Shown: positions 1 through 20,808 of the stretch, in pieces
Layout of the letters: every line of letters starts with the position of its first letter
How positions within the stretch are numbered: position 1 is the first letter of the stretch
Translations under genes and position numbers: made by a program
From: an uncultured Alphaproteobacteria bacterium
Lineage (GTDB): Bacteria > Pseudomonadota > Alphaproteobacteria > RF32 > CAG-239
Length of the DNA stretch: 64,000 nucleotides
Assembly: GCA_934254915.1 (NCBI GenBank)
Contig: CAKQMH010000003.1
Coordinates: 25,793-89,792 of the forward strand
Reading direction: 5' to 3'
Notes under the pieces: generated by a model
What the model saw: the letters and a program-made list of their open reading frames with translations, nothing else
The model's database searches: none
What the model was told of the DNA's origin: nothing

Positions 1-400
1 ATAAATTTCTAATACTGGTTATTTGGTTTATATCCATATTTTTATCATCAACATCACCTCTTTTTTGTATCCTATTATAAATAGTTTCAGGGGCAGCATC
101 CAATAAAACAACTCTACCGCCTCGTTTATGTAGCATTTGCAATAATTCTGAAAAATCTTGATCGGAAAGGCGAGAATATCCTCTTTTTAAAGGCCCATAA
201 ACCATTTCAGATATAAATGAACGATCTAAAACAATATTATCTCCGTAATCTTTTGATAATATTCTTTGATATTTCTCTTTTATTGATAGATGAGAATCGT
301 AATTAAAATGCAGCGATTTGTATCCTCGATGAATAAGTAAATTTGCTAAAGTTGTTTTGCCAACACCATCACATCCCTCTAATATAATAAAGTCACTCAT
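1..400 (-). CDS. Thymidylate kinase-like dNMP kinase, N-terminal part (gene continues past the left window edge)
   Basis: Hand translation of the reverse strand gives MSDFIILEGCDGVGKTTLANLL...DRSFISEMVYGP... with no stop before position 1. EGCDGVGKTT is the Tmk-type P-loop. The ATG at 400-398 overlaps the TGA of the upstream gene (ATGA), indicating translational coupling. Not in the ORF track because it is open at the window edge. Confidence 0.55.
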   Translation of the reverse strand, partial: MSDFIILEGCDGVGKTTLANLLIHRGYKSLHFNYDSHLSIKEKYQRILSKDYGDNIVLDRSFISEMVYGPLKRGYSRLSDQDFSELLQMLHKRGGRVVLLDAAPETIYNRIQKRGDVDDKNMDINQITSIRNL

Positions 401-1179
401 CGTTGGCATCCTTTTATCATATTTAAGGGAATACCTGCTTTTAATAGAGGACATTCATTAGGCTTGTGGTTATTACAAAAGTGGCGTTTATAGTTAATCA
501 TAACTAAATGAACCCACCATGTTAAAGGTTTATCTTTGGGTAGTTTTATGTTTTTATCATACCCTAGTTTTGTTGCTATTTCCAACCAGTCGTGAGATTT
601 TGTAAAATCTTCTAATTGCGCTCGAACTGTTTCATGAGCAATAGCATTTTTTCCTGTTTTATAACCCAAACAAGGAGCTAGCATATCTTTCATACCACTA
701 TCAACAGGCATAACTCCACAGTAATATCCCTTTGCATATAAAACACAACATTGTCCAACTTTATACGAAGCTCCATCAACATTTTTTGCAATATCTGCAA
801 TCATTTCTAAATTAGATATGTTTTTAATATCCTTAAATTTTAAATTATTATCTATATAGCGACTCATACTTCTGACAAACTTTATTCTTGTATCAGGTAA
901 TCCTAAAGGCCTCAGCATTACTTTCAAATCGTCGTCTGATGTTTCTTTTATTTCTTCATAAGAGTGCATTAAAAAATTATTGATAGTCTTAATGTAACTG
1001 CCTAGCATTCGAAAAGATACTCTCGTACTTAAACCAGCAATAAGCATTTTCATGCGCCAGTCATCAACATCTTTAGGCCACCAAGGGTTGTTATCATGAG
1101 ATTTTATAACAGCATATTTTACTTCTGGTTGAGATGCCATAATCTCTATAGCTTTTATCTGTTCATCTTTACGCATCAC
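397..1179 (-). CDS. HhH-GPD superfamily (endonuclease III-like) base-excision glycosylase fold protein
   Basis: 260 aa. The segment ...IADIAKNVDGASYKVGQCCVLYAKGYYCGVMPVDSGMKDML resembles the helix-hairpin-helix plus Gly/Pro-Asp motif of Nth/MutY-type enzymes, with the Asp in PVDSG. The C-terminal Cys-rich tail (C-x7-C...C) is not the canonical EndoIII FeS loop. AT-rich codon usage. Confidence 0.45.
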   Translation of the reverse strand: MMRKDEQIKAIEIMASQPEVKYAVIKSHDNNPWWPKDVDDWRMKMLIAGLSTRVSFRMLGSYIKTINNFLMHSYEEIKETSDDDLKVMLRPLGLPDTRIKFVRSMSRYIDNNLKFKDIKNISNLEMIADIAKNVDGASYKVGQCCVLYAKGYYCGVMPVDSGMKDMLAPCLGYKTGKNAIAHETVRAQLEDFTKSHDWLEIATKLGYDKNIKLPKDKPLTWWVHLVMINYKRHFCNNHKPNECPLLKAGIPLNMIKGCQR

Positions 1180-2693
1180 TAGTTTCCTTTAATAATCTCA
1201 CCTTTTAATAATTTAGGTTCAACTGTATCTAATATTTGTATGCTATAATTATCATAAGGAGTTAGTTTTTTATTTTCAATCATAACTTTTATAGAGCATG
1301 TTCCTAAAGCTCTTAGATAAGATGCTCCATTTTCAAAAACCACTTCTCTAAATGATTTCAATTGTCTACCAATGGGGTAAACTCGTTTTTGCATCGGAAT
1401 GACAAAATTTGTCATGATATCATTTTTACATCTAGAGTAGTACTCAATGTCTTCTTTAATTTGAGAAGATATTACACCTTCAGCAGGTGTCATGTATCGA
1501 TAAAATAACCTGTGTGTTTGTAGTTGGTTTTGATAAATTCTATTCAAAAATTCCATATTAATTTCATGTGTTTTTTCTGTTTGTCCGGGCAATCCATGCA
1601 TTAAATTAATTCCTGGTAAAAATTTTGGGAAACCCTTTGGGCCAATTTCGGCACCATATTCATTTATTATTTCAATAGCATTTATTATTTTATCAGCACT
1701 ACCATAGATGTGTGTAGCTTTTCGAACACTATCATCAAACGATTCTATTCCAAAAGGAGCAACATTACCATCGGTGCAATTTTCAACAACTAATTTAACA
1801 AATTCTCGTCCATGAGGCTCAACAACACTATTCATGTTTACATTATCAATATGTAATGTTTGAATATCTGTTCCAATTTCTCTTATTCCATAAAGTAGTT
1901 TCCTTAGTTTTTCTATAGAATTATATTGATAATGGAAGAAATTGGGCTGTCTTCCTAACCTAAAATGTCTTACTCCACTTTTATAAAGAGCGGTTATTTG
2001 TTTTACTATTGAAATCGGTTCTCTATACGATGGACGAATGTGCCTTTTAGCTTCTATACAATAACTACAGGTTGGAGTGTTGCAACCTGTTCCTGTTTCA
2101 ATTTCAGCAAGAATGGGATAATTTAATTGTTCAATTATATGAACTGGTTGGCTAGAAATTTTATCTAACAATTCATAATTCGGTAATAAAAAATTACCAG
2201 TGGTAGAATTTTCTAATACAAAACGATAAGTGTTTCCTATACATACGGTATCAATGATTTTTGCCAAATGAGAACTTTGGTATGCTGAACAGACATTATT
2301 TTCAATTCCTAAAACATAAAAAAGTATTTTTTTTGCCTTTGTATTATTTAGAAAAGTATAAACTTCTTCAATAGAAGGTGGCTCACAAGAAAAATACTTA
2401 TATTCAACAAAACATCCCATGATAATATAAATTGTTTCGGCATTTTTAATAATGTCTAATGCGTAAGGTGCATTTTTTGTCTTATTTAGAATACGAATGT
2501 TAGTATTTTCTGCTTCTTTTTCACCATTGGCAAACCTTAAGTCATCGATAGTAAGGTAAGAAAATGCTTCATTTTTATAACTTAATGCTTGTGATAAATG
2601 TATTTGATGAGTACCTAAATAAGGTCGAGCACCATATCCAGATGGTTCATCTGTATAACAATCTAAGATTATAGTTTTATTATATTTTGTCAT
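1179..2693 (-). CDS. Radical SAM superfamily enzyme with non-canonical CX4CX2C motif and an N-terminal extra domain of about 190 aa
   Basis: 504 aa. The reverse complement of 2041-2100 encodes ETGTGCNTPTCSYCIEAKRH, a three-Cys cluster in the glycine-rich context typical of radical SAM cores. A G-rich SAM-binding-like region follows (VAPFGIESFDD...). Start and stop overlap the neighbouring genes. Confidence 0.6.
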   Translation of the reverse strand: MTKYNKTIILDCYTDEPSGYGARPYLGTHQIHLSQALSYKNEAFSYLTIDDLRFANGEKEAENTNIRILNKTKNAPYALDIIKNAETIYIIMGCFVEYKYFSCEPPSIEEVYTFLNNTKAKKILFYVLGIENNVCSAYQSSHLAKIIDTVCIGNTYRFVLENSTTGNFLLPNYELLDKISSQPVHIIEQLNYPILAEIETGTGCNTPTCSYCIEAKRHIRPSYREPISIVKQITALYKSGVRHFRLGRQPNFFHYQYNSIEKLRKLLYGIREIGTDIQTLHIDNVNMNSVVEPHGREFVKLVVENCTDGNVAPFGIESFDDSVRKATHIYGSADKIINAIEIINEYGAEIGPKGFPKFLPGINLMHGLPGQTEKTHEINMEFLNRIYQNQLQTHRLFYRYMTPAEGVISSQIKEDIEYYSRCKNDIMTNFVIPMQKRVYPIGRQLKSFREVVFENGASYLRALGTCSIKVMIENKKLTPYDNYSIQILDTVEPKLLKGEIIKGN

Positions 2694-3417
2694 GATATTC
2701 TCTATAATAGATTAAAGCTTTATTAAATTCATTTTGTAAAAATGATAACGAGTTAGAGCAGTTTGTTTGATTCTTTATATATACAATAGGTATCTCTGTC
2801 TCTTTAATACTAATAATGTTATCTGGCACATTTAAAACATCCTTCTTATAAACCGTATTCATTGTTTTTTCAGAAACTAAATGTCCTCCATTTTTATATC
2901 TATTTAAATTACGCTCTTTCCTTATTGCTAAAGGGGCATCAATATCTATTATTAGTGAGTTTTTTAATAAAAATGATGGCACAGTCTGGCATAAATAATT
3001 AAAAGATATAGGATATACATCCTGATCATTTATATCAAAAAAATGGTTATATTTAGGATCACTACCTCTGGAAAATTCAACAACAGTGTAGTCAGAATTT
3101 ATCTGTTTACCTAAAATTGTTAACACGATATTCCAAACAATGGGATTATCAATTAAGTATCCCCCCTGATTATTAGGGTGGCTATAAAAACAAGGAACTT
3201 CTTGATCATAGTACATATCTATACCATTCTCTTTTACAAATTTCCAAAACTCTTTCAGTTTATGTTGATGCAATAATTTATCTGCGGTAAATATTTTATA
3301 TAAAGGAACAGCATCATCTAATACAGAATACTCTGGATGTAAACTGCATATGGCTTGACCCATTGATGATTTACCGCTGCAAGCTGGACCTATTATAAAT
3401 ATTAAATTGGGTTTCAT
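2680..3417 (-). CDS. P-loop NTPase / nucleotide or nucleoside kinase-like protein
   Basis: 245 aa with Walker A IIGPACSGKSS at the N-terminus. Size and layout resemble small-molecule (nucleotide or nucleoside) kinases. Overlaps the radical SAM gene by 14 nt. Confidence 0.5.
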   Translation of the reverse strand: MKPNLIFIIGPACSGKSSMGQAICSLHPEYSVLDDAVPLYKIFTADKLLHQHKLKEFWKFVKENGIDMYYDQEVPCFYSHPNNQGGYLIDNPIVWNIVLTILGKQINSDYTVVEFSRGSDPKYNHFFDINDQDVYPISFNYLCQTVPSFLLKNSLIIDIDAPLAIRKERNLNRYKNGGHLVSEKTMNTVYKKDVLNVPDNIISIKETEIPIVYIKNQTNCSNSLSFLQNEFNKALIYYREYHDKI

Positions 3418-4252
3418 CTTTTTTATCCATCTTCTGTATTGTATTTTTGGCTCTGCTAATTTCTATAGATTTATTTCTTAAATGGAGGTTCCCATAATCT
3501 TGAACAGATATACTGGCCATAGCTAATGCTTGGTAAACTGCTTCATTTAAATTTTTGCCATTGAACGAAGACAAAAAGCTTCCGAGGAATGTATCTCCAG
3601 CACCAACTGTGCTAACAACATCATCTGTTTTGATTGTTGCAAAGTATTTTCTTTCGTTTCCTTTTCGGTAGAAAACTCCTGTCATATCAGTAGTAAATAT
3701 TGATAAACTTTGAGGTAATGAATCAATTAAGCCATTACGTTGCATAATTATAAATTCATTGTCATTACAAAATAAAAAATCAGCCTTCTTAAGGCAAGTT
3801 GATAATTCCGGTAAAAAATCTTTTATACTAGACCACATAACATCTAAAGAGTAATATTGAGCATGAATCTTGTTCATAGCATCAATAAAAGGAACGCCCT
3901 TTCTGCATGATATATGCAAATAGTCCGCAGTTAATTGTTCCGGTATAATTATAGGTGCATAAACATTATTTATTAAGGAAATCTTATTATTTATCTCATC
4001 AATATTAAACGAATTCGTTTTATTTTCATATTTTTGTATGTGTCGTGTATCTATACTTAATTTATCCAATGCATCTATAGGAAAGTCATAACCTATGCTT
4101 GATATTATAGATATTTCTTTATTTCCGGATAAACTTCCTGCAATAGCTGCATTCACAGCACTTCCTCCGATTACATCCTTCGTTCCTTGATGAGTTATGA
4201 TACGGTCAATCGAAGAATTGCCACAGAAAATTAATTTATCTTTTATGCTCAT
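3371..4252 (-). CDS. PfkB-family carbohydrate/nucleoside kinase (ribokinase-like)
   Basis: 293 aa. N-terminal GG motif (VIGGSAVNAAIAGS) and C-terminal anion-hole motif (VVSTVGAGDTFLGSF), both PfkB signatures. Confidence 0.7.
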   Translation of the reverse strand: MSIKDKLIFCGNSSIDRIITHQGTKDVIGGSAVNAAIAGSLSGNKEISIISSIGYDFPIDALDKLSIDTRHIQKYENKTNSFNIDEINNKISLINNVYAPIIIPEQLTADYLHISCRKGVPFIDAMNKIHAQYYSLDVMWSSIKDFLPELSTCLKKADFLFCNDNEFIIMQRNGLIDSLPQSLSIFTTDMTGVFYRKGNERKYFATIKTDDVVSTVGAGDTFLGSFLSSFNGKNLNEAVYQALAMASISVQDYGNLHLRNKSIEISRAKNTIQKMDKKDETQFNIYNRSSLQR

Positions 4253-4832
4253 TTATATACCAATTAACAAATTTTTGGATGCTACCATTAGCACCGGCAC
4301 GTCCATAATACTCAGAAACTTCTTGTTCAGAAAGCTCACAAAGATTTTTATTATATTCTTTTAAATATATTATTTTCCATAACTCAGACCATGCATATGG
4401 TGATTGAATATCAATTTTTTCTTTTGATATTTCAAAATCTCCACCCTCGCGTTCAAATTGAAACAAGATACCGTCTTTATTAACGAATGTAGTGACACTT
4501 ATGAATTTAGCGGTTCTGTTTTCAATGCCTTGCATTAATTTTAAAATACCATCAGCACCTAATGTTTTCAAAACATATTTGGTATAAACTCCCGGAAAAC
4601 CTTTTAATTCAAATACGGAAAATCCACCATCTTCTACTAAAACGGGTTCTTTTAATATCTCAAAAGCTTTTAGCGCCTTATATTTTGAAACCTCTTGAAC
4701 AGTATCAAATTGAGGTTCCATAATATCTAAGTTTTGCGCACATATCTGCACATCAATATTATTAACTTTTAAACTATTTTCTAGTGATTTTATTTTTCCT
4801 TTATTGGACGTAATAAAATTAATCTTATTCAC
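4236..4832 (-). CDS. Ham1/ITPase-family non-canonical NTP pyrophosphatase (RdgB/Maf-like)
   Basis: The ORF-track ORF runs 4236..4937, but the family motifs start at VNKINFITSNKGKIKSLE, followed by VLVEDGGFSVFELKGFPGVYTKY. A GTG at 4832-4830 is preceded by GGAGG (complement of 4839-4843), giving a ~199 aa product typical of ITPases. Confidence 0.7.
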   Translation of the reverse strand: MNKINFITSNKGKIKSLENSLKVNNIDVQICAQNLDIMEPQFDTVQEVSKYKALKAFEILKEPVLVEDGGFSVFELKGFPGVYTKYVLKTLGADGILKLMQGIENRTAKFISVTTFVNKDGILFQFEREGGDFEISKEKIDIQSPYAWSELWKIIYLKEYNKNLCELSEQEVSEYYGRAGANGSIQKFVNWYINEHKR

Positions 4833-5175
4833 GCATAACCTCCACAGATACTGCCATAATAGAATATTTTTCGATATCTGAATTTGAAAACCATTGCTTG
4901 ATATTAAAATATGCAGAATTGTAATCAGATTCGCCAAGATCTTTCAAAGAAAATTTACGTATTAATGAATTAAGATCTCTGGATATTCTTATATTCTTAA
5001 CCAAAAGAGAGAGACTCTCATTATTTTTATTTAATAAATTGAAACTATCATTAATGGATAAACCAGAGCGTTTCTCATCGCACAAATAAAACTTTACGTT
5101 TTTTTTGCTCTTTTTAATTTTTTCAAATGTTATATCATCAACAATAGAAGAAAATTTGCACATTAAATCTCCCAA
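4825..5175 (-). CDS. Hypothetical small protein (first gene of the island operon)
   Basis: 116-aa AT-rich ORF. Its 3' end contains the SD of the ITPase gene. No recognisable motifs. Confidence 0.3.
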   Translation of the reverse strand: MGDLMCKFSSIVDDITFEKIKKSKKNVKFYLCDEKRSGLSINDSFNLLNKNNESLSLLVKNIRISRDLNSLIRKFSLKDLGESDYNSAYFNIKQWFSNSDIEKYSIMAVSVEVMRE

Positions 5176-5452
5176 ACTTTTTCTACATGATATTATTAAA
5201 AATAAAAAAAATCAATATTTTTCAAAAGTTGACACAAGTAGTTCAGCATTACTTCAATAAAAAGGTATGTATGCGATAGCTTTAGTAAATTTTAGTAAGT
5301 ATAATAAGGTGTTTGTTGAACATTCAGACTATACCAAGTATGTTGAAATCAAAGACGACAGCAAATTTATGGATGTTAACTTCCCGAGCGATGTTGAAAA
5401 AGTTTCCAAGAAAAATAAGTGAGTTAACAACCAAGGCCGTATCAGAGCCGCA

Positions 5453-5911
5453 TTACTTCTCTAAAGTTATATATTCGGGCGGAATAATACCGCCTTTGAT
5501 GACAACCAGATAATAAGGTACAACGGCAAACCGCAAGCCAAGTTTTTCATCACAAACCGACCAATCCACCGGAGAAGTATCAATATCGCTGATTGACGCT
5601 AATTTTATCAGACGTTCATCAATATCATGCGGAAGATCTTTATCTAAATTCGGACGGATTGCCGGACTGACATAAACTGCTTCAATCAGGCCGTCTTTTT
5701 GTAAAGCCATTAAATCAATAGAAAATAAATCAGCATTATCAATAAAAGGCTTGAACATATTGATGCTTTTGTCTGTCCATTGTATCGGTTCTGAAAAAAC
5801 CGCGAATGGCACGGCTGCGGCCGTTAAAACAAGATTCCATATCAGAATTGTGGGGCAAAAGCACTGTCCAAGATTATAAAAAGGATATATAATCGGTTCG
5901 CCAAAACACAA
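5453..5911 (-). CDS. Hypothetical protein (possibly a gene fragment)
   Basis: 152-aa ORF in a short patch of core-like GC between the AT-rich operon and the IS remnant. Hydrophobic N-terminus. No family recognised. Confidence 0.25.
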   Translation of the reverse strand: MCFGEPIIYPFYNLGQCFCPTILIWNLVLTAAAVPFAVFSEPIQWTDKSINMFKPFIDNADLFSIDLMALQKDGLIEAVYVSPAIRPNLDKDLPHDIDERLIKLASISDIDTSPVDWSVCDEKLGLRFAVVPYYLVVIKGGIIPPEYITLEK

Positions 5912-5989
5912 TTAGAGGGACTGCTGATGCCTATAGAGAAGTATATAACAGGGAATGAAAAAATCAAGATAAAATAGATAGATGAATGG

Positions 5990-6260
5990 AAAAAGTTAGT
6001 TTTAGAATGTGAGGACAAGACGGAGTATTATTGTCCATATTGCGGAAGTTATGAGTTAAGGTGTAAGGTCACATTTATCAAGAACATCAAAGGGATAAAG
6101 CTAGGCAACAAGGCCACAATTTTAAGGTTTAAGACCCATAAATACAAGTGTTTGGATTGATGAGCATTACTTAAGCAAGAAATACTTTCCTAATGCAATG
6201 ATAGTAAGTGACCGTTTCCACGTAATAAAATTGATATTAGAGAGTTTTATGTGCTTAACT
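5990..6260 (+). mobile_element. ISL3-family transposase remnant (internally deleted pseudogene)
   Basis: Frame translation gives ...EWKKLVLECEDKTEYYCPYCGSYELRCKVTFIKNIKGIKLGNKATILRFKTHKYKCLD* (ISL3 N-terminal zinc-finger region) and then ...FPNAMIVSDRFHVIKLILESF (the ISL3 DDE-domain DRFH motif). There are stops on both sides and most of the gene is missing. Confidence 0.6.
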
Positions 6261-6389
6261 TATTTTTACGAAAAAACAAACGAACTGATGACAGATTTTT
6301 TATAATTTTTTTTACTCTGCCTCCAACTTTTACGATGAGCCCCTAAAGATACAAAAAAGTCTCCGTATTTCTACGAAGACTTTTCTTAT

Positions 6390-6465
6390 TGGTGAGCTCG
6401 GGCGGGTTCGAACCGCCGACCCTTTGATTAAAAGTCAAATGCTCTACCGACTGAGCTACGAGCCC
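6390..6465 (-). tRNA. tRNA-Lys (anticodon UUU), CCA encoded
   Basis: The reverse complement reads GGGCTCGTAGCTCAGTCGGTAGAGCATTTGACTTTTAATCAAAGGGTCGGCGGTTCGAACCCGCCCGAGCTCACCA. It has a 7-bp acceptor stem with one G-U pair, a GGTTCGAA T-loop and a CTTTTAA anticodon loop. Its 3' end faces the AT-rich island. Confidence 0.9.
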
Positions 6466-6623
6466 TTAATCTCAACAACGAGCCTATGTATAGAAGATAA
6501 ATTTTACTTAGTCAACTAAAAAAATAAAAAAATTTTAAAAAATTAAAAATGTAGTATATTTGTTAATAATTATATGCTACTATCAAGCCAAATTGGAACA
6601 TATCCTTGGGTATAGAGGTCAAT

Positions 6624-6938
6624 ATGGATAAGAACACGAATATGGAAGAAGAAGGCAGATACGAGATTCTGCAAAATGAAGCCGGCGAAATTTTGATTGT
6701 TATTAAGCAACGCCGCGGCGGTCCGGAGAATCCTCGTTTTGTTTATGACGGCGGTAAAACGGCTTTGTTGTATCGCAGCCGCGAAAGCGCCGTATTTTTG
6801 GAGGAAATCGCTCAAGGTGCATGGCGTCCGTTGAAAATGGCCGACGAAGTCCTCGTGGCGGAAATTGACGGTGACGATGTTGCTCGAGAATATACTGTTC
6901 CGGTACGTCTGGTTCGTAGTCTTGACGCCTTAAGATAG
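6624..6938 (+). CDS. Hypothetical protein
   Basis: GC-rich ORF (ORF track 6606..6938). The probable ATG at 6624 follows an AGAGG Shine-Dalgarno sequence and the gene ends in a terminator hairpin. Confidence 0.4.
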   Translation: MDKNTNMEEEGRYEILQNEAGEILIVIKQRRGGPENPRFVYDGGKTALLYRSRESAVFLEEIAQGAWRPLKMADEVLVAEIDGDDVAREYTVPVRLVRSLDALR

Positions 6939-6970
6939 AGCCGGTGACTATTATCCTCACCTGTTTAATA

Positions 6971-6996
6971 AGGGCTTTAAAAGCCCTTATTTTTTG
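6971..6996 (+). terminator. Rho-independent terminator
   Basis: AGGGCTTTAAAAGCCCT hairpin followed by TTTTTT. Confidence 0.6.
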
Positions 6997-7027
6997 ATAT
7001 ATTGAAGGCAAATATTAATATGGACAT

Positions 7028-8704
7028 TTGCTGATGATTATAAAGCTGTTTATCTTTCTGCTGGCATTATCTTTCTTAGCTTTGGCATTTGCGCCCAAAC
7101 GCGGCCTGCGCTTGTGGTCATCGCTCTTTGCGCTTGCGGCGGTTATACTTGCCGTGTGGGTGGCCGGAAATCAAACCTCCGGCATTTTTGCTTCCTATGT
7201 GCATCCCTGGTTGAGCTATGGCAAACTGAAAATATCGTTTAATCTGACCGCCGATTCTTTAGGCCTTAAAACCTTAAGTGCCGTTTTGGCGCTGGCAGCC
7301 TTATTGATTTATTACAATACAATAGCCGCGGTTGACAATTTCCGCCCTCGTCTTAACGGTATTCTGCTGTTGAGCGTTGCCGGGTTTATGCTCTTGTTTT
7401 CCGCTCATGATTTTGTTCAACTTATGATCGGCAGCTGCCTTTATACGGTGCTTGGATTTTATTTGTTGGATGTGGTTGCCGGCAAACGAAAATATTTGTT
7501 TTATAATTTTATCGGTGAAATGGCGCTGTTTACGGCTTTGGCCGTGGTTTACGGCAGTGTCGACAGCGTTAATTTGCCGCAGGCATTGTCTCGCTATCAG
7601 GATTACGGGCAGCATCGCGATTTGGTTACCCTGTTGGTGTCGTTGGCGCTGGTCATAAAATCCGGACTATTCCCGTTCCAAAATCAGTTTCAGGATAATC
7701 GCGGCTTGTCGTTTAGCCGGATTATTGCCGTTACCGCCATTTTAAATCCGCTGGCTTCCCTTGTGCTGCTGCTCAAACTGTCACCATTGCTGCATGCATC
7801 AGCATGGGGTGTTACGGCAATGACGGCGGTTTGTGTGCTTTCGGCACTGTGGGGCGGTGTCGGTATGTTGTTGATTGACAACCTTAAAGCTAAAGTACTT
7901 TACCTTAACCAGAATATTATTGCGTTTATGGCGGTACTGTTGCTGACCAATCCGGTGTCGTTTCCGATTCTTCTGACTATGGTTTTGCCGATAATGGTAA
8001 TTTTGGATTATTTGTGGAGCTTGGTTTATATTTCAGCTTCAAATGAAGTGTATGTTTCGCAAATGGGCGGTTTTGTTAAGTTCTTGAAACTTGATTTGCT
8101 GCTTTTGTGGGGCGGAATTTTAACCTTTGTGCGGATAGCCGCCAATCAGGAATGGTCGAACCTGAAATGGGCTTTGCTCTTTGTCATTACCGCTCTGGTT
8201 GGGTTAGCCCACATTTGCCGCCAAATATATTTTGGGGCGCATCATGCTGATGAACGGGTAGAGGCTTTGTTGCACAATGCTCCGATTCGCACCTGGTTGC
8301 CTCTGGTTGCGGCTATGGCCGTGTTGTGGTATGTTAACACCGCTCCGGCCGTTGACGGCTTCGTTTATGGCGGTGTAGGCTTGTTTGCGGTTGTTTTGCT
8401 GCTCAATCCATTTAAACGGTTAATGCACATGGCCGACAGCGAAATTCAAGATGCTGACGGGGTTGAACAACTGTTCCGGTTTAGTATTTTAATGCCGATA
8501 AAGCTGTTGGGACGAATTTTGTGGATTACCATTGACTTTTTGTTTATTGAACGCACGATTATCGGCTCGGTTTCAGCCTTGAATAATTTTATGGTTAATG
8601 CCTTGCACCGTATTCAAAATGCTGTCTGGCTCAATTATCTGCTGATGGTAGGCTTAGGTGCGGCAATAATGCTTTTTTACATAGGACGGAGTTATTATGA
8701 ATAG
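7028..8704 (+). CDS. nuoL: NADH-quinone oxidoreductase subunit L-like antiporter-type membrane subunit (short form)
   Basis: 558-aa polytopic membrane protein. The motif FVQLMIGSCLYTVLGFYLL...FYNFIGEMALF is loosely NuoL/MrpA-like. Position upstream of clear nuoM-nuoN. Confidence 0.55.
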   Translation: MLMIIKLFIFLLALSFLALAFAPKRGLRLWSSLFALAAVILAVWVAGNQTSGIFASYVHPWLSYGKLKISFNLTADSLGLKTLSAVLALAALLIYYNTIAAVDNFRPRLNGILLLSVAGFMLLFSAHDFVQLMIGSCLYTVLGFYLLDVVAGKRKYLFYNFIGEMALFTALAVVYGSVDSVNLPQALSRYQDYGQHRDLVTLLVSLALVIKSGLFPFQNQFQDNRGLSFSRIIAVTAILNPLASLVLLLKLSPLLHASAWGVTAMTAVCVLSALWGGVGMLLIDNLKAKVLYLNQNIIAFMAVLLLTNPVSFPILLTMVLPIMVILDYLWSLVYISASNEVYVSQMGGFVKFLKLDLLLLWGGILTFVRIAANQEWSNLKWALLFVITALVGLAHICRQIYFGAHHADERVEALLHNAPIRTWLPLVAAMAVLWYVNTAPAVDGFVYGGVGLFAVVLLLNPFKRLMHMADSEIQDADGVEQLFRFSILMPIKLLGRILWITIDFLFIERTIIGSVSALNNFMVNALHRIQNAVWLNYLLMVGLGAAIMLFYIGRSYYE

Positions 8705-10127
8705 TCCTTTTGCTTTATTATCTCTGATTGTGGCGATTCCGTTTTTAGGCTTGCTTTTTGTCCTTACGGCCAAAGGTGACGAGAACAATGGTCGACACAA
8801 TGCTTTCAATGTCTGCGTTTTTACTATTTTGGCCAACATCGTGATGCTGTTCCGCATTTTTATGCTGCTGGATGAAAATTCGCAGAAACTTCAGTTGTTG
8901 GAACATTTTGACTGGCTGAATGAACCGAATGTCAATATTCTGTTCGGGGTAGATACTTTTTCGCTGATTTTGATTTTGGCGGTGCATATCGCGGTTTTAA
9001 TCGGTTTGTCAGGTGTTAAAAACAACACTTTTAAGCAAAAATCCCTAATGGCATATACGTTGCTGTTTTTGAGTATGATTACCGGTCTTTTCGTGGCCGC
9101 GGATATTTTTTCTTTTTATATCTTTTTTGAGGCCATGTTGCTGCCGTTGTTTATGATTATCGGAATGTTCGGGGCTGTCCGCAAACAGGAGCTGATATAC
9201 CGTTTCTTTCTCTACAACCTGCTTGGTGCGTTGGTGTTGTTCAGCGCAACCATGCTGATTTATCATTTCCACGGTTCACTGACTTTGGAACAATTGGGCA
9301 AATTGCGGCTTAAAGGTTCGTTGGCATATTATATTTGGGGCGCGGTATTTTTATCTTTCCTGTCGCGTATTCCGATTTGGCCGTTTCACTATTGGATTTC
9401 ATCAATTAATGCCAACATTCGCAACCCATTGGTTTTTATAATCACCGTGCTGATGCCGTTGACATCGATTTATGGCTTTATTCGCTTCCTGCCGCTCAAG
9501 TTTTCGGCGGTTACGGATGTATATATAATTTGGGTAAGCATTATTGCCGTGATTACCATGCTTTTCATTGCTCTTATCGGGTTTATTAACAAAGACAGCC
9601 AGTATAAACTTTTCTCTTATGTCACGGTTTATTATCTGATGTATTTATTGAGCGCTTTTATGCATGATGTTCTGATTTTGCAAAATGTCGGTTTTTCGTT
9701 GCTTGGTTTTATGCTGATAGTTGCTTCACTGGAGGTCTTGTCCGGCTATATCGCGCAAAAGGAGAATGAATACGGAACAACCGGAACCGGATTTTTGTGC
9801 CGTGTACCGCGGTTGTCGTTTATCTATTCTTATTTAACTTTGGCGGCGGTCGGTATGCCGTTGTCGGCAATTTTCCTGCATAACTTTTTAATATTGTCAA
9901 AGCTGCTTTCTTCCAATATTAAAATGGGTATGGTTCTTATTGCTTCATTGGTTTTGGTCGGCGCGTCGCTGTTGCAGGAACTTTATCAGCACAAAGTTGA
10001 TAATCCCGAATGTCCGATTATCCGGCGGGATGATATTTCGCGGCGGATGTTTGTCTTTATGCTGTTTGTCGGCTTTGTTTTGTTAATGTCGTTTGTCAAA
10101 CCATTATGGTTTGTGATTAATGAATAG
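8697..10127 (+). CDS. nuoM: NADH-quinone oxidoreductase subunit M
   Basis: 476 aa. FYIFFEAMLLPLFMIIGMFG...RFFLYNLLGALVLF matches the conserved NuoM/ND4 core. Overlaps the upstream gene by 8 nt. Confidence 0.75.
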   Translation: MNSPFALLSLIVAIPFLGLLFVLTAKGDENNGRHNAFNVCVFTILANIVMLFRIFMLLDENSQKLQLLEHFDWLNEPNVNILFGVDTFSLILILAVHIAVLIGLSGVKNNTFKQKSLMAYTLLFLSMITGLFVAADIFSFYIFFEAMLLPLFMIIGMFGAVRKQELIYRFFLYNLLGALVLFSATMLIYHFHGSLTLEQLGKLRLKGSLAYYIWGAVFLSFLSRIPIWPFHYWISSINANIRNPLVFIITVLMPLTSIYGFIRFLPLKFSAVTDVYIIWVSIIAVITMLFIALIGFINKDSQYKLFSYVTVYYLMYLLSAFMHDVLILQNVGFSLLGFMLIVASLEVLSGYIAQKENEYGTTGTGFLCRVPRLSFIYSYLTLAAVGMPLSAIFLHNFLILSKLLSSNIKMGMVLIASLVLVGASLLQELYQHKVDNPECPIIRRDDISRRMFVFMLFVGFVLLMSFVKPLWFVINE

Positions 10128-10135
10128 GAGGCAAA

Positions 10136-11560
10136 ATGTTGCAAAATTGGTTTATAATGCTTCCTGAGCTGTTGTTGTTGAGTTATTTGCCGTTAGCCTG
10201 GTTAGTTAAAGTTTGCCGTTCGGGACAAACTTACAAAACCTTTTATACTCTAAGCAAATATTTTTTGTCGGCCGCTTTGGTCTTTAATATCATTTTTTAT
10301 AACAAAACGGTTTTTGCGTCGCTGTTGCTTAATACAGCCGCGGCATCTTTATTTAAGACAATTGTATATTTGGCGGCGCTGGTTTGGTTTTATTTGTCGT
10401 CGAAGTGGTTTTTGAACAAAAGCCGCTCCTCGTTCGGTTTTTATCAATTGGCGGTTTCGGGAGTGTTGATTCTGGAACTGCTGATATCATCGCATAACCT
10501 GATATTGACGGCAACACTGTTGACGTTAGGCTGCTTGTTGGTTTGGGCAATGCTTAATTTGCATTGGGATAAAAATGCGATTAAAGAAATTTCCGTTCTT
10601 TATGCTTTTTTTGCCGTAATTTTTCTGATTGCACTATGGATTGGCATCATAATGTTGGCTTATCACCGCTTTCCGATGGATTATGCGGCGGTAAGGGATT
10701 GTATCAATGATAAGACGCTTGACGAAGGCTGGCTTTATGTCGTTATGGGACTGACTTTGGCACCGGTTTTGTTTATGTTGGGATTAGCTCCGTTTCATTC
10801 TTGTCTGGTAGGTGTAATCCGCTCTTCAATCCTGCCGGTCAGTGGCTATTTAACCTTGGTCTTTCCGGTTTCGTTATTATGCGTCTTGCTCAATTTGGTA
10901 TCACAGGTCTGGAGCAACGCTTTGGCGGTTGTCAGTCCGTTATTGCTGGCTTTTGCCGTAATCTCGCTTGTTTTGGGGGCATTATCCGCCAATGGCGAGA
11001 AAAACCTGCGACAGCTGTTTGCCTTCAGCAGCATTTATCATTTGGGTTTTATGTTCTTTACGCTTGTCAGTTTTAATGCTAATTCATTGCTGAGCGCGTT
11101 TACCTATATTGTCATTTATTTATTGTCAATGTTGGGGATTTACACGGTCTTTTTAGGCTTAAAGAGCCGCGGTAATTATTTGACGGATGTCGATGATATT
11201 GACGGCCTGTCGTTATCCAAGCCCTATATTTCGGTCAGCTGGCTGATATTTATGGTTTCGCTCATCGGGTTGCCGCCCATGCTTGGTTTCTTGGGCCGAT
11301 TATCCGTAATCAATAATTTGGTCTTGGAGGAGCGTTGGGGTAGTGTAATATGTTTGTTATTGTCGCTTTTGTTTATTGCCAATGCTTATTTACAGCTGAT
11401 TCGCCACATCTATTTTACGCCCGTTGTTAAGTCGTTTGACCGTGCCGATAAAGCTATTTATTTGTGCTTGTTTGTCAATCTGCTGCTGGTTTTGATTTCG
11501 ACGCTCAATCCTGAATTTTGGCTGCGCAGTGCCGAACATATTTTGAAAGGAGCGTTTTAA
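10136..11560 (+). CDS. nuoN: NADH-quinone oxidoreductase subunit N
   Basis: 474 aa. ...LGALSANGEKNLRQLFAFSSIYHLGFMF matches the NuoN/ND2 motif. Confidence 0.7.
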   Translation: MLQNWFIMLPELLLLSYLPLAWLVKVCRSGQTYKTFYTLSKYFLSAALVFNIIFYNKTVFASLLLNTAAASLFKTIVYLAALVWFYLSSKWFLNKSRSSFGFYQLAVSGVLILELLISSHNLILTATLLTLGCLLVWAMLNLHWDKNAIKEISVLYAFFAVIFLIALWIGIIMLAYHRFPMDYAAVRDCINDKTLDEGWLYVVMGLTLAPVLFMLGLAPFHSCLVGVIRSSILPVSGYLTLVFPVSLLCVLLNLVSQVWSNALAVVSPLLLAFAVISLVLGALSANGEKNLRQLFAFSSIYHLGFMFFTLVSFNANSLLSAFTYIVIYLLSMLGIYTVFLGLKSRGNYLTDVDDIDGLSLSKPYISVSWLIFMVSLIGLPPMLGFLGRLSVINNLVLEERWGSVICLLLSLLFIANAYLQLIRHIYFTPVVKSFDRADKAIYLCLFVNLLLVLISTLNPEFWLRSAEHILKGAF

Positions 11561-11561
11561 T

Positions 11562-12320
11562 ATGCCTGAAATCGGAAAATGGCAGTGGTTTGATTATGAT
11601 GATGCGGACAGCACTAACGATACCGCTTTAGCGTTAAGCCAAAATCCGCCGGCAGAATATTTTGTCGTAACCGCCAAACGTCAACACAACGGACGCGGCC
11701 GCCGCGGCCGCAGTTGGATAAGTCAGGAAGGCAATTTATTTATGAGCCTTGGATTGCCTTTTGATATAAATGATATTAATGCGTTGGTCTTCATTACGGC
11801 TTTGAGTCTGTTTGAAGCTGTAGCTTCGCAATCGCCGCAGGGTTGCTTACAACTCAAGTGGCCTAATGATGTTTTATTTAATAATCAAAAAATTTCAGGA
11901 ATTTTACTTGAAAAAGGTTTTCAAAATTATATAATCGTCGGCATTGGTGTAAATATTTTGACATCGCCGAGCCTGAATGACCAGCTGTTATATCGTTCGG
12001 CAAGTCTGCGCAGTGCCGGTATCAACATTAATCGTGTTGATTTGATGTTGCTTTTCCTTTCCTGTTTTGACCGTAACTTATCATTGTGGCGTGAGCAAGG
12101 ATTTGCGCCCATTCGTATCAAGTGGCTGCAAAATGTTAAAGGTTTGGGTGAGGATATTGTGGTAAATAACGAAAAAAACTCGCGCCGCGGTGTGTTCGCC
12201 GGGTTGGATGAAAACGGCGCGTTGTTGTTGGATGAAAATGGCAAAATAAGCAAAATTTGGGCCGGTGATATTTTTTATCAAACCGACCATAAACAAAGAG
12301 ATAAAGTTACTGATGAATAA
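11562..12320 (+). CDS. birA: Biotin--[acetyl-CoA-carboxylase] ligase (group I, no DNA-binding domain)
   Basis: 252 aa with the KRQHNGRGRRGRSWISQEGNLFMS biotin-ligase signature (GRGRxGRxW). Confidence 0.85.
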   Translation: MPEIGKWQWFDYDDADSTNDTALALSQNPPAEYFVVTAKRQHNGRGRRGRSWISQEGNLFMSLGLPFDINDINALVFITALSLFEAVASQSPQGCLQLKWPNDVLFNNQKISGILLEKGFQNYIIVGIGVNILTSPSLNDQLLYRSASLRSAGININRVDLMLLFLSCFDRNLSLWREQGFAPIRIKWLQNVKGLGEDIVVNNEKNSRRGVFAGLDENGALLLDENGKISKIWAGDIFYQTDHKQRDKVTDE

Positions 12321-14100
12321 AGAAGAAAATCAATTGGAATTTAGTTTTGACCCTGTACCCGCACAAACCGATAATAAGGCCGCAAGCGGTAATGTTGCCG
12401 GCTTAAATCGGGAAGGAATATATTTTGTTGCTTTAGGCGGTGCCGAAAAAGTCGGTATGAATATGTATGCTTACATTGTCGATGGTAAAATAATCGTGGT
12501 CGATGCCGGTTATGACTTTTTGAATGATGACTTTCCCGGTATAGATTTAGGCCTGGCCGATGCTTCATTTTTAGAAAACTATCAGGACTGCATTGAGGCT
12601 TTGTTTATTACTCACTCGCATGAAGACCATTTTGGTGCTATTGCTCACATTTGGCCGCGGCTGCAATGTCCGGTTTATGCCACGGATTTTACTTTGGGAC
12701 ATATTGTTCAACGTCTGGCGGAATATAAATTGGACAAGTTGGTCGATTTACATTCGGTAAACGATAACCCGATTGTCAAGTTGCCGAATTTTACGGTTGA
12801 ATATGTTCCGGTTGCCCATTCGCTGCCCGAAAATTCGGCTTTGGTGATTCATACCCGATACGGCACGATTTTTCATGCCACGGATTGGCGTTTTGATGAT
12901 CAGCAGATTTCGTTTATGAAAACCGACTATCAACGTTTGGAAGAGCTTGGACAGGAAGGGATTGATCTTTATGTCGGCGATTCTATCCAAATGGGGCATA
13001 ACAGTGCTTCACAACCCAGTGAAAAAGAAATCAGGGATAATCTGATTACGATGATGCCGCGGTTCAAAAACACGCTGGTTGCTACTTGTTTTGCCTCTAA
13101 TATCGCCCGTATGGAGAGCTTAATTCTGGCGGCTCACGCGGCCGGACGTACGCCGGTTATTGCCGGTATGAGCCTGATTCAAAATATGAAAATCGCCAAA
13201 GACTGCGGCTTTTTGCCTGATTTGCCGCCTTATGCCGAGGCTAAACAGGCTATGGATATTCCGCTTGATAAAATGTTGTATATCTGTGCCGGTTCGCAAG
13301 GCAATTATCGCAGCGGTCTGACGCGTATTGTCAATGGCGAAAATAAGGATATCAAACTTGGTAAAGGCGATGCGATTATCTTTTCTTCGCAGATTATTCC
13401 CGGAAACGAGGAAAAAATTGAGCGTATGCAGGAAAAATTGCGAGATGCCGGGGTCGAGGTCATTTCATGTGAAGAATATCCGGTTCATACTTCCGGACAT
13501 GGTACACGTTCTGATGTGGCCAAAATGTTTTCTATTCTGAAGCCGCATACGGTTATTCCGGTGCATGGAGACAAACGTTGTATTCGGGAGCAAAAACGTT
13601 TTGCCTTGGAACATGGCATCGAAAACGTAATTGTTGCCCGCGATGGCGATGTTGTGCGGATATATAATCATAAAGCCGAAATTGTAAGCCAAGTTCCGAC
13701 GGATGAATTGGGTGTTGACCGTAAACAGGTTATCAGCCTTGGCTCGCAGGTCATCAAAAATCGCCGTCGTATTGCCTATAACTGCAGCTTGTATATCAGT
13801 GTGGTATTAAATGAGGATTGGTCTGTTGCCGATTTACAAATTTCCTCGTTGGATATTTTGGATGAAGCCTCGTTCAAGGTTTTGGCTGATGACATTAAAA
13901 GCGAAATGCTGAAAACCATTCCGGCCGAAATTGTGAAACTCAATTACCGTATTCCGCAAATCAAAGAATATATTCAGGCCAAGATTAGAAAAATGGTTTA
14001 TAAGGCAACGGATATCAAACCGGTTACAACCATGCATTTTTTCAAACAAGGAATGATTGCGGCTGCCGACAGCGGCGAACCGGAAACCGTTGAAGCTTAG
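12312..14100 (+). CDS. rnj: Ribonuclease J
   Basis: ITHSHEDHFGAI (metallo-beta-lactamase HxHxDH), a beta-CASP region and VHTSGHG. The probable start MNKEENQ at 12312 overlaps the birA stop (ORF track 12265..14100). Confidence 0.85.
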
Positions 14101-14765
14101 ATTTCAAAAGTCATACCTTGACGCAACACTCCGCCCAGTCCCGATTTGTGGGCAATTTGGCAGAGCGTTTCATAATCTTTGGGCAGGTAGTGCGATACAA
14201 AAGTTTTAGCTTTTATTTCCGGCTTGGCGGTGCTTAACTCATCAATTCCGACAATTATCCCGCCGCCTTTAAGGCTGACATCGTGGATAATCATCTTCGC
14301 TTCGGCCGCGGCTGCGGAATCTAAAATCGAAATCGCACTGTCGCCGCTGTACAAAAGAGTGTGATTAATGAATAACGCATAACAATCCATACCTTTGGCA
14401 TGCGGCACTGTAAAACAATCAACGTGTATATCATCGGGCAGGGGCATAACCTTCTCCTGCCAGCCGTTTCCGGAGTGCAACTCCAAAAAGCGGCGGCAAT
14501 CAGTTCCGCCCAATGCGGTTTTAAGTCCCAAAATTTTGTACCGATAATCCAACAGATTAACCACCGATCCGCAATGATCCTGATGCAAATGACTGATTAG
14601 AACCGTGTCGATTTTGTCGGCATAGCCTTTTTGGCGCAATTCCTGATAAACACTGAAACCGCAATCCAGCAAAATTCCACTGTTATTGTTTTGCCATAAG
14701 ATAAAAGAGTTGGTTACTCCTTGCGCCGCAAATGCGGCATTAGTGCCTAAAACTTCCAGTCGCAT
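14097..14765 (-). CDS. MBL-fold metallo-hydrolase
   Basis: 222 aa with the HLHQDH motif and VLGTNAAF at the N-terminus. Confidence 0.55.
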   Translation of the reverse strand: MRLEVLGTNAAFAAQGVTNSFILWQNNNSGILLDCGFSVYQELRQKGYADKIDTVLISHLHQDHCGSVVNLLDYRYKILGLKTALGGTDCRRFLELHSGNGWQEKVMPLPDDIHVDCFTVPHAKGMDCYALFINHTLLYSGDSAISILDSAAAAEAKMIIHDVSLKGGGIIVGIDELSTAKPEIKAKTFVSHYLPKDYETLCQIAHKSGLGGVLRQGMTFEI

Positions 14766-14769
14766 TAAC

Positions 14770-16197
14770 TTAAGCCTCCTGCTTTTGCGGCAAATAAATA
14801 GTAAAAGTCGTTCCGTTGCAAATTGTTGAGTTTACCGTCAAATTGCCGCCGTGGCGGATAATAATTTGCTTGGCAATGGCTAAACCTAAACCCGTTCCTT
14901 TAATATTCAAGTCCTTATGCTCTTGCATACGGTAAAATCTTTCGGTCAGGCGGGCTAAATTTTCGGGCGCGATTTTCGGACCTTTGTTATTGATGGCAAT
15001 TGCCACGGCAGGACCTTTGGCAACCTTAAAACTTTTAGATGTTGGAATTTTCTCACAATTTTGCAGTGTTATGCCGACTTCGGTATCTGAAAGCCCGTAT
15101 TTTATGGCATTATCCGCAAGATTCTGTATAAGTTGCCGGATTTGTGCCGTATCGGCTGTAATTTCAGGAATATTATCTTGGGCATCGACTTTAATTTTTA
15201 TGTGCCGTTCGGCAGCGCGCAAAGCCAAAGCTTCGGCCACATCTTCGGCAATATCCAAAACATCGACTTTTTCATCAGGTTTATGATCTTGATTAAGCTC
15301 GATTTTCGACAACGACAACAGGTTTTCAATCAAAGCCGACATATAATCAGCTTGTTCTGCCATAATGGCTAAAAACTTTTCGCGCGCTTGTTCATCATCT
15401 TTGGCACTGCTTTGCAGAGTTTCAATCACCCCGCTGATAACCGCCAGAGGCGTGCGCAGTTCATGGCTGGCATTAGCCACGAAATCCGACTGCATTTTTT
15501 CGACTTTCATGGCTTTGGTCATATCATAAATTGAAATTACCGCTACGGCCTTGCCTTTTGACAACCAGGGCAGTTGTTTAATATGGGCATATAATTTTTG
15601 TGCCTGCGGTTTTTGAAGATAGAAAATCAGATTTTCTGACTTGCTTTCTTTGTTCAAAACCTTGCTTACCGCATTGATGAAGTTGTTTGAGGCAAAAAGA
15701 TTTTCGACGTTTTTGTTGGTAATATTTTTTCCAAAAGTATTGCGAGCCGAAAGGTTAGCGCCCAAAATATTGCCGGCGCGATCAATAACCATAATCGGAT
15801 CAGGCAGACTGTCTAAAACCGCCGTATCGGAAATGGTTTGGGCTTCCAATCGGTCGGTTTTTTGCGCCCAAAAACGGTGCATGGCGTTAACTGCCTCTAC
15901 AATATCTTTCGCATCTTTTTCCGAAAGCGTCATCATTTTTTCATCAAAATCGCCGCCGGTCGACAAAGACGTGACATAGCGTTTGATTTGTTGTAATTCA
16001 AAAGTCAGCGGGAATAAAATTAAAATATTAAGCAGCGTAACCGCTCCTAAAGAAATTACCGCCAGCGTCGGGTTGACCAGACGAAATGCGGCTAAAACAA
16101 TAAAAACCAATGCCGTCGGGCAAGTCAAGAGCAAAACCCGTTCGGTAAATTTGGCATTTTTTTCAATTCCCAAAGATTCGCGCGCTTTTTCAAACAT
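14770..16197 (-). CDS. Sensor histidine kinase (TM, PAS, HisKA, HATPase; PhoR-like)
   Basis: SHELRTPLAVISG (H-box) and GTGLGLAIAKQIIIRHGG (G2 box). PAS-like DSLPDPIMVIDRAGNIL. N-terminal TM helices. Confidence 0.8.
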   Translation of the reverse strand: MFEKARESLGIEKNAKFTERVLLLTCPTALVFIVLAAFRLVNPTLAVISLGAVTLLNILILFPLTFELQQIKRYVTSLSTGGDFDEKMMTLSEKDAKDIVEAVNAMHRFWAQKTDRLEAQTISDTAVLDSLPDPIMVIDRAGNILGANLSARNTFGKNITNKNVENLFASNNFINAVSKVLNKESKSENLIFYLQKPQAQKLYAHIKQLPWLSKGKAVAVISIYDMTKAMKVEKMQSDFVANASHELRTPLAVISGVIETLQSSAKDDEQAREKFLAIMAEQADYMSALIENLLSLSKIELNQDHKPDEKVDVLDIAEDVAEALALRAAERHIKIKVDAQDNIPEITADTAQIRQLIQNLADNAIKYGLSDTEVGITLQNCEKIPTSKSFKVAKGPAVAIAINNKGPKIAPENLARLTERFYRMQEHKDLNIKGTGLGLAIAKQIIIRHGGNLTVNSTICNGTTFTIYLPQKQEA

Positions 16198-16295
16198 AAT
16201 TTTCTTGTCCCATATCTTTTAAATAGGTCTAGACTAAGATTATAAATAGAGTATTATGAAACAAGTTTAAATTTAATAAATTTTTTGAGTAAAAA

Positions 16296-18992: not shown

Positions 18993-19090
18993 TTTTGTTG
19001 TAAATGTATAAAATAAGCAAAATCAACCAGTTAATAAGTGGTATTATAATACCACTGTCTAATTATTTGTAAAATAATGAAATTTTGTTG

Positions 19091-19118
19091 TTGACTTTAG
19101 TTATCTTTCCTGTATATT
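19091..19118 (+). promoter_or_regulatory. Candidate sigma70 promoter for rplM-rpsI
   Basis: TTGACT at 19091-19096, a 16-nt spacer, then TATATT at 19113-19118, about 40 nt upstream of the rplM start. Confidence 0.35.
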
Positions 19119-19158
19119 CACAGCCGAATAATAACCTTCTTCAAAAAGAGAGAAAACT

Positions 19159-19623
19159 ATGAACACATATGCAACAAAACCCTCTGACATTCAGAGAAAG
19201 TGGTATGTAGTTGACGCTAATGGAGTTGTTTTGGGCCGTCTGGCTGCTGAAATCTCTAAACTCTTGCGCGGCAAACACAAACCCAACTATGTTACCAACC
19301 TTGACTGTGGTGACTATGTCGTTGTTATTAATGCTGACAAAGTTAAATTGACCGGCAAAAAACTGACCGATAAAAAATATTTCAAACACACCGGTTGGAT
19401 TGGCGGTATCAAGGAAACAACTCCGGCTAAGATTTTGGCTGGCAATTTCCCGGAAAGAGTTATCATCAAAGCTGTTGAACGTATGATTTCTCGTAACCCG
19501 ATGGGTCGTCAACAAATGACCAAGTTAAAAGTATACGCTGGTGAAAATCATCCTCACACAGCACAAAACCCTGAAGTTCTGGACATTGCTTCCATGAACC
19601 CGAAGAATAAAAGGAGCGCATAA
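19159..19623 (+). CDS. rplM: 50S ribosomal protein L13
   Basis: [20 protein letters not shown]... is a canonical L13 N-terminus. 154 aa. Confidence 0.95.
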
Positions 19624-19625
19624 CC

Positions 19626-20114
19626 ATGGCTGAAAAAATCGAATCTTTAAAAGACATTAAGAGCGCATCGGTTAAAGTTGCTGCCGCAGAAACTGCCGAA
19701 GTTGTACGCAAAGCCAAAAAAGATAAATTTGGCCGTTCTTATGCAACCGGTAAAAGAAAAGATGCTGTTGCCCGTGTATGGATTAAACCCGGTAAAGGCA
19801 ATATCACCATTAACGAAAAATCAATTGACCAATACTTTGGTCGTCCGGTTTTGAAAATGATTATCAACCAACCTTTCGAAGTTGCTAACCGCGTAAATGA
19901 ATTTGACGTTGTTTGCACTGTAAAAGGTGGTGGCTTGTCTGGTCAGGCCGGTGCAATCAAACACGGTATTTCTAAGGCTTTGAATGAGTTTGAGCCGGAA
20001 TTGCGTGCCGTTTTGAAAAAGGCTGGCTTCCTTACCCGTGATGATCGTACGGTTGAACGTAAGAAATATGGTAAAGCTAAGGCTCGCCGTTCTTACCAAT
20101 TCAGCAAACGTTAA
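19626..20114 (+). CDS. rpsI: 30S ribosomal protein S9
   Basis: Ends ...[11 protein letters not shown], the canonical S9 C-terminus. 162 aa. Confidence 0.95.
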
Positions 20115-20713: not shown

Positions 20714-20736
20714 AAATAAAAGAAATTGGTAAGCCT

Positions 20737-20767: not shown

Positions 20768-20808
20768 ATATCTAATTGATAATTAGAATAGGTCAGAGTA
20801 AAAATAAA

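Follow-up and report, generated by a model that had tools for sequence, protein, structure and literature searches.

A strain-variable, repeat-bounded islet without a recombinase at the 3' end of a MocA-like gene in an uncultured gut alphaproteobacterium

Cis-mobilizable elements (CIMEs) are decayed ICEs or IMEs that keep attL and attR and carry neither integration nor transfer genes, and those of Streptococcus thermophilus lie at the 3' end of fda (PMC6323972, PMC5704250). In Escherichia coli, e14 and phage 21 reside in icd, where an intact icd is accompanied by an icdC pseudo-tail and excision recombines the two copies (PMC13626634); e14 itself, a prophage remnant of 15 kb, encodes its own integrase and is excised in an SOS-inducible manner. 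The islet described here resembles a CIME in being flanked by direct repeats of a target-gene 3' end, in its small cargo, in its strain polymorphism and in having no integration or transfer genes, but no cognate ICE, IME or integrase was found for its putative att site, and its repeat is 120 bp long and nearly identical to the host allele. Like e14, it lies within the 3' coding end of a protein gene, which is left intact with a C-terminal pseudogene fragment at the insertion's opposite end; unlike e14, it measures 6.8 kb and encodes no integrase. With classical tRNA-gene islands it shares atypical composition, variable presence and a tRNA 3' end that faces the block, and the same cargo occurs in such an island at a tRNA-Glu gene elsewhere, whereas here about 960 bp separate the junction from the tRNA, and neither a tRNA repeat nor an integrase was found. 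As a structure, the junction is of a common and well-documented kind.

The locus was analyzed in a stretch of 64,000 nucleotides (the window), for which the original prediction had placed an island at the 3' end of a tRNA-Lys gene, with a broken ISL3 transposase just inside it and any distal att-like repeat beyond the left edge. ARAGORN and Rfam confirmed the tRNA-Lys(UUU) gene on the minus strand, with its CCA end at 6390 facing lower coordinates and the AT-rich block. Looking up the 504-aa radical SAM ORF by exact protein match led to L001, a 108-kb metagenome contig from the human gut, which is 100% identical to window positions 1-12693 in reverse orientation (L001 position = 12694 minus window position) and extends the sequence by 8.8 kb past the left edge of the window. 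BLAST and a repeat search of this extended region revealed a direct repeat of 120 nt, 98.3% identical between its two copies and with a spacing of 6,890 bp, which is much longer than any other repeat there (Table 1). The distal copy consists of the last 38 codons and the stop of a gene that lies on the opposite strand and encodes 547 aa, with a C-terminal MobA/MocA-like NTP_transf_3 domain. The proximal copy is free-standing, and the ORF at 5267-5422 ends in the same final 38 residues followed by a stop; the target MocA-like gene is therefore intact and a duplicated 3' pseudo-tail has been left on the tRNA side. A distal repeat does lie beyond the left edge, as had been anticipated, but it derives from the MocA-like gene and not from the tRNA. 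The proximal junction falls at window 5307/5308 and recurs in an independent assembly (L002), and the islet spans 6.77 kb between the repeats, the insertion amounting to 6,890 bp when one repeat copy is counted.

Table 1. Features of the tRNA-Lys region, the islet and a comparison locus (window positions unless a contig is named).
Feature	Position	Strand	Remarks
Distal repeat copy	L001 14157-14276		1,463-1,582 bp outside the left edge
Operon gene 8, 209 aa, Asp/Glu-racemase/Amdase-like			beyond left edge, as is distal repeat
Operon gene 7, 384 aa, dTMP-kinase-like + pyrimidine 5'-nucleotidase/HAD fusion	1..400 (5' part)	-	
Operon gene 6, 259-aa HhH-GPD (EndoIII/MagIII/Ogg-like) fold protein	397..1176	-	
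Operon gene 5, 504-aa radical SAM enzyme	1179..2693	-	RimO/MiaB-like three-domain, CX4CX2C motif
Operon gene 4, 245-aa P-loop kinase-like protein	2680..3417	-	
Operon gene 3, PfkB-family sugar/nucleoside kinase	3371..4252	-	
Operon gene 2, Ham1/RdgB-like non-canonical NTP pyrophosphatase	4236..4832	-	
Operon gene 1, 112 aa	4825..5163	-	PHROG 19935 'RNA-binding protein'
Promoter-like TTGATT-17-TATCAT	5187..5215	-	conserved in other contexts; start of DNA common to contexts
Proximal repeat copy	5308..5427	+	attL-like junction; MocA-like NTP_transf_3 pseudo 3' end
Small ORF, 152 aa, function unassigned	5453..5911	-	narrow family; retained in islet-free strains
ISL3-family transposase remnant	5928..6345	+	Pfam, three-frame translation of 5982-6300
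Putative IS right end	6318-6345		part of ISL3 remnant
Intrinsic terminator hairpin ('W' allele)	6353..6386	-	directly 3' of tRNA-Lys; G+C-poor, then T-run
tRNA-Lys(UUU)	6390..6465	-	ARAGORN + Rfam (74.2 bits); only tRNA placed here
tRNA-Glu island features	L019 6214-7411 and 14276-14294		island carries same operon, truncated integrase, ThsA-Macro gene and exact 19-nt att-like repeat

Composition and strain comparison agree with these boundaries. The GC content is 30.1% in window 1-5307 and 42.7% in window 6624-64000, third-position GC (GC3) is 16-25% in the islet genes vs 46-52% in core genes, and the low-GC stretch is the one that the repeats enclose (L001 7387-14156). Three contigs from three other samples (L015, L016 and L017; MocA-like protein cluster P0001, 99% identical) carry an empty site, with the order flgK…OprB…MocA-like gene, one 120-bp copy, small ORF, ISL3 remnant, tRNA-Lys, and are collinear with L001 over 8.4 kb (98.9%) once 6,890 bp are removed. 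The empty-site sequence reads …GGTTGTTA[A/G]CTCAC…AACACCGG[T/C]CTTAG…, and its single repeat copy has 3 SNPs that are missing from both copies of the islet-bearing strain, so that these contigs represent real alleles and not assembler collapses; the islet-bearing contigs were assembled at k 141, longer than the 120-nt repeat. The block thus shows what is generally expected of a genomic island, namely atypical composition and a precise indel among conspecific contigs (99% identity), and is bounded by direct repeats of the attL/attR type with a single copy at the empty site, the recombination activity of the repeats being putative. The view of the AT-rich block as an island of horizontal origin and mobile appearance was upheld by its composition (30% vs 43% GC) and by its presence in some strains and absence from others, which is also what the proposed comparison with related genomes brought out (L001 vs L015-L017). 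A scan of JGI metagenomes for the empty-site pattern gave 0 matches (the species is probably absent from that collection), and a contig scan with the MocA-like protein returned only a 41%-identical Alphaproteobacteria MAG, without a tRNA.

Recombination between the 120-bp repeats would yield exactly the observed empty site, as would be expected if the operon were ancestral at this locus and the islet-free strains were simple deletion derivatives with no horizontal acquisition at all. This account is very unlikely, however, given that GC3 of the islet lies about 25-30 points off the core, that relatives carry the operon at different sites while orthologous loci at 63-70% identity are without it, and that the origin of the duplication would be left unexplained.

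The empty sites also bear directly upon the attachment site. The islet-free contigs keep the tRNA and its terminator as well as the ISL3 remnant and the small ORF, and with them the approximately 960 bp that separate the junction from the tRNA-Lys 3' end, and lose exactly the segment bounded by the repeats. Thus tRNA-Lys(UUU) is a core gene and not the attachment site, the tRNA, terminator, ISL3 remnant and small ORF are resident neighbors outside the islet, and integration at the tRNA-Lys 3' end is contradicted by the empty sites. Searching with the last 25 nt of tRNA-Lys (up to 3 mismatches) gave no second copy in the window, in agreement with the earlier statement for positions 1-6389, nor in the 8.8 kb further left, and the longest exact downstream match to the tRNA-Lys end is 9 nt, equal to chance. 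The recommended leftward extension supplied a repeat, the 120-bp one, but neither the tRNA-Lys repeat nor the integrase that it was meant to reveal. Between tRNA-Lys and the islet, the search for a recombinase or integrase found only the ISL3 remnant and the small ORF. Several observations do speak for a site-specific island at the tRNA-Lys 3' end with ISL3 just inside and a partial tRNA repeat beyond the left edge: the tRNA 3' end faces the block, in relatives the operon adjoins tRNA-Glu (with a 19-nt repeat), tRNA-Pro and tRNA-Leu genes, the nine tRNAs that lie up to 4 kb upstream of the radical SAM gene in 86 loci share its orientation without exception, and the homology between L001 and a second chromosomal context (L020) stops about 12 nt beyond the tRNA-Lys 3' end. 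Set against the empty sites, the fact that the 8.8 kb past the left edge contain no repeat of the tRNA-Lys 3' end, and the lack of an integrase beside the tRNA, such an island is extremely improbable here; the model fits the history of the cargo elsewhere, not at this locus.

The stretch between the IS remnant and the tRNA is variable in its own right. Window 6346-6389, from the right end of the remnant to the tRNA-Lys 3' end, was compared with L002 340-405, L010 1-86 and L016 11608-11682, and occurs in the form of two alleles that are unrelated and have separate terminator hairpins; the 'V' allele has a hairpin different from that of 'W' and extra tandem copies of the IS terminus (…GACGATGAGCCC…). 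This stretch is 45-75 bp long, and both W and V were seen with and without the islet (4/4 combinations). Two more low-GC dips (29-35% GC) follow rplM-rpsI at window 20249-24986, where several ORFs have no Pfam match; an integrase was sought in the AT-rich dips at 19-25 kb, and the ORFs there are ribosomal proteins, HolC or without match.

The two broken ISL3 pieces, a YCPYCG N-terminus and a DRFH segment, were verified by Pfam and lie in different frames. The Zn-ribbon N-terminus spans 5928-6160, with an ATG at 5928 and an in-frame TAG; the frame from 5984 (EWKKLVLECEDKTEYYCPYCGSYELRCK...KYKCLD*) matches Zn_ribbon_ISL3 (E 1.6e-5, 25.6 bits, cut-off 25.5) over profile positions 5-44 of 47. The DDE fragment occupies a separate frame at about 6150-6305 and contains the DRFH motif (IDEHYLSKKYFPNAMIVSDRFHVIKL...). 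Its match to DDE_Tnp_ISL3 (26.8 bits, cut-off 23) is limited to profile positions 71-94 of 240, indicating that the catalytic domain has been reduced to a sliver and that the HTH region is gone. The remnant thus resembles ISL3-family elements in its Zn_ribbon_ISL3 and DDE_Tnp_ISL3 signatures and departs from them in being only about 450 bp long, with frame breaks and two internal deletions; a full single-frame transposase (Zn ribbon, HTH, complete DDE) is absent, the frames differing and an internal stop being present. The right end we take to be ISL3-like from the family consensus. Local alignments of the remnant ends score no better than shuffles in the inverted-repeat test, and no left inverted repeat, inverted-repeat pair or 8-bp target duplication could be demonstrated at the remnant. 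Neither blastn of the IS region against plasmids nor tblastn of the 77-aa ISL3 N-terminus gave any match, so that there was no full-length relative against which to map the deletions. Contrary to the placement of the remnant inside the island, identical internal deletions are found in islet-positive contigs and in all three islet-free conspecific contigs; the remnant therefore predates the polymorphism and stands outside the islet, an old bystander fixed in all strains and unconnected to the islet boundaries.

The small ORF beside it belongs to a family of 47 representatives (E up to 1e-3) among 1.84 billion, and its conservation is confined to residues of about 36-152, full-length relatives being 165-180 aa long. 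Relatives carry about 57 more N-terminal residues, and this points to a probable 5' truncation of the ORF when the IS inserted. A diverged ThsA-Macro protein, which would tie the tRNA flank to the tRNA-Glu island in L019, was considered for this ORF and rejected, as there is no similarity; the near-equal distances between tRNA and operon in L001 (3,697 nt) and L019 (3,700 nt) are accordingly a coincidence.

The long target duplication that flanks the islet and the single copy at the empty site together point to single-crossover insertion of a circle that carried the target. We consider it probable, with considerable reservation, that the block is a decayed, CIME-like integrative islet without a recombinase, inserted into the 3' end of the MocA-like gene by single-crossover (Campbell-type) recombination. 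A circular molecule carrying a copy of the gene tail would have recombined once with the resident tail; with the gene 3' end included in the duplicated segment, the host gene would remain intact and the 38-codon pseudo-tail would come to lie at the opposite end. Most likely the element was a small integrative one that lost its integrase or that always borrowed one, and the islet could subsequently be lost by recombination between the repeats or pass from strain to strain by homologous recombination of the flanks. Because no integrase, excisionase or circular junction was found for the islet, we can only infer that the crossover was site-specific and not RecA-mediated; the circular intermediate and the direction (gain) are likewise inferred. 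Since a decayed integrase accompanies the same cargo in L019, a decayed integrative element is the most economical history, and that integrase is the one piece of indirect support for a putative CIME-type derivation by ICE or IME decay.

Against the CIME-like reading, the repeat copies are 98% identical and together differ by 3 SNPs from the empty-site alleles, a near-identity more in keeping with a circle that arose in the same lineage, or with gene conversion, than with an attP from far away. A length of 120 bp is, moreover, long for an att identity segment. These features could have come from a purely RecA-mediated event, in which a plasmid or excised fragment bearing about 120 bp of the gene tail of this very species entered as a circle by homologous single crossover, with no dedicated recombinase ever involved. 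In its favor, the repeat copies are nearly identical to one another and to the resident allele, the islet has no recombinase gene, in one distant copy (L080) an exact repeat of 142 nt gives way to diverged homology, as homologous exchange predicts, and the four combinations of islet state and terminator allele show frequent local recombination. Additionally, the SNP density between islet-bearing and islet-free contigs is about 3% up to about 1 kb from the junction, against about 0.4% beyond, showing that the haplotypes are old or have been exchanged by homologous recombination; current mobility may be purely RecA-driven. The repeat near-identity and the raised local divergence are the reasons why we keep this alternative as a possible, if doubtful, origin of the islet. 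It leaves unexplained, however, what would supply circles with host gene ends in several unrelated hosts, the same cargo lies in L019 in a classical tRNA-att island that retains part of an integrase, and 120 bp is a short RecA substrate. In L001 6200-8800 compared with L015 and L016, SNP density was about 7-fold higher up to about 1 kb from the insertion point than at greater distances.

The cargo of this probably integrative islet consists of eight co-oriented genes, located at window 1-5163 and L001 7531-14074, with one promoter-like site upstream, among which Pfam, NCBIfam, PHROGs and PADLOC searches found no recombinase, relaxase or T4SS component. Operon gene 7 matches TIGR01993 with 143.7 bits (cut-off 142.9). 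AlphaFold models made from alignments for the radical SAM enzyme and the 259-aa protein reached a pLDDT of 91-92; the former model has the RimO/MiaB three-domain architecture (4jc0, TM 0.71-0.72; 7mjx, TM 0.68) and the latter an HhH-GPD glycosylase fold (1pu6, TM 0.70; 1orp, TM 0.73). A known defense system was rejected as cargo, PADLOC giving trivial P-loop matches only, as was a phage origin, with no matches in IMG/VR or GenBank phages, and a literature search on the operon found nothing relevant.

Homologues at 88% and 83% protein identity sit in identical 8-gene operons in two other chromosomal contexts (L019 and L020). Nucleotide identity over L001 7461-14075 is 84% and 78% in these contexts, the operon has about 29% GC vs about 40% GC in the hosts in both, and the DNA common to the contexts runs from the promoter to just past the last stop codon. 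In L019 (MAG GCA_045615365.1) the operon lies in an 8.0-kb block that begins at the 3' end of a tRNA-Glu(CUC) gene and ends in an exact 19-nt repeat of that 3' end (0 expected by chance); the block also carries a ThsA-Macro gene and a 229-aa ORF that matches only the C-terminal third of an integrase family (phrog_95, positions 433-579 of 651, E 7.6e-8). In L020 the operon begins 237 bp after a tRNA-Pro(GGG) gene, for which no repeat was found in that contig. The L020 block measures 12.4 kb (7158-19770) and lies between tRNA-Pro(GGG) and the orthologous tRNA-Lys(UUU), both with 3' ends inward, and it contains paralogous prepilin-like genes that give repeats on either side.

Distant homologues of the operon, in Lachnospiraceae, Bacteroidota and Streptomyces plasmids, retain a core of radical SAM, Amdase-like, HhH-GPD-like and PfkB genes, accompanied by nucleotide kinases and a Ham1 or MazG pyrophosphatase. 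Conservation of the operon, which includes a nucleotidase among its parts, across Proteobacteria, Firmicutes, Bacteroidota and Actinobacteria was seen in L024, L027, L031, L044 and L080, and a WYL or XRE regulator or a nucleoside 2-deoxyribosyltransferase sometimes accompanies the operon. Among roughly 40 sufficiently flanked loci, direct repeats of at least 19 nt bracket the operon in 10 and form non-bracketing pairs in 2. The 142-nt repeat in L080 stems from the 5' part of an acylphosphatase gene (9183-9324 / 14597-14738), and a repeat of about 127 nt in L044 consists of the last 6 nt of tRNA-Leu and the downstream flank (3389-3515 / 10038-10164); in both loci the operon genes alone lie between the repeats. 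Other bracketed copies are found in L031 (5706-5865 / 13714-13876) and L057 (6579 / 13280). The bracketing repeats in unrelated genomes are about 45-160 nt long and derived from the local target, with no recombinase between them. A 642-nt repeat in L063 was discarded as an att site, being in fact a duplicated gene pair.

That at least five unrelated loci have repeat-bracketed copies without a recombinase, with repeats that are all different, is what one would see if the cassette mobilized itself by a novel mechanism making long target duplications (about 20-160 bp). Nevertheless, no conserved terminal sequences adjoin the repeats, the repeat lengths vary widely, all of the genes look metabolic and a decayed integrase stands beside one copy, so self-mobilization is hardly to be credited. 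Another and rather unlikely proposal, which we offer tentatively, is that the cargo is a widespread uncharacterized module that passes from phylum to phylum as a cassette lacking a recombinase and flanked by long target duplications, perhaps a new nucleotide- or nucleic-acid-modifying conflict (anti-phage) system inserted perhaps without ordinary integrase chemistry.

Returning to the islet as a probable CIME-like insertion, the locus demonstrates how a tRNA, an AT-rich block and an IS scar can mislead when the true site is the tail of a protein gene, which became visible only after the sequence had been extended and the empty site discovered. It also provides a clean natural attL/attR/attB-like triplet, in that one uncultured gut alphaproteobacterial species shows the empty site together with the two junctions of an islet that has no integrase. 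The 8-gene nucleotide-modification operon, which is strain-variable, mobile across phyla and absent from catalogues of defense systems, is a reasonable candidate for functional study. One database entry calls for comment: P0255 (MBE6504058.1), deposited as Methanobrevibacter sp., falls in the same 90%-identity cluster as P0122, which is 88% identical to the radical SAM protein of the window, and the contig of MBE6504058.1 is probably mis-binned.
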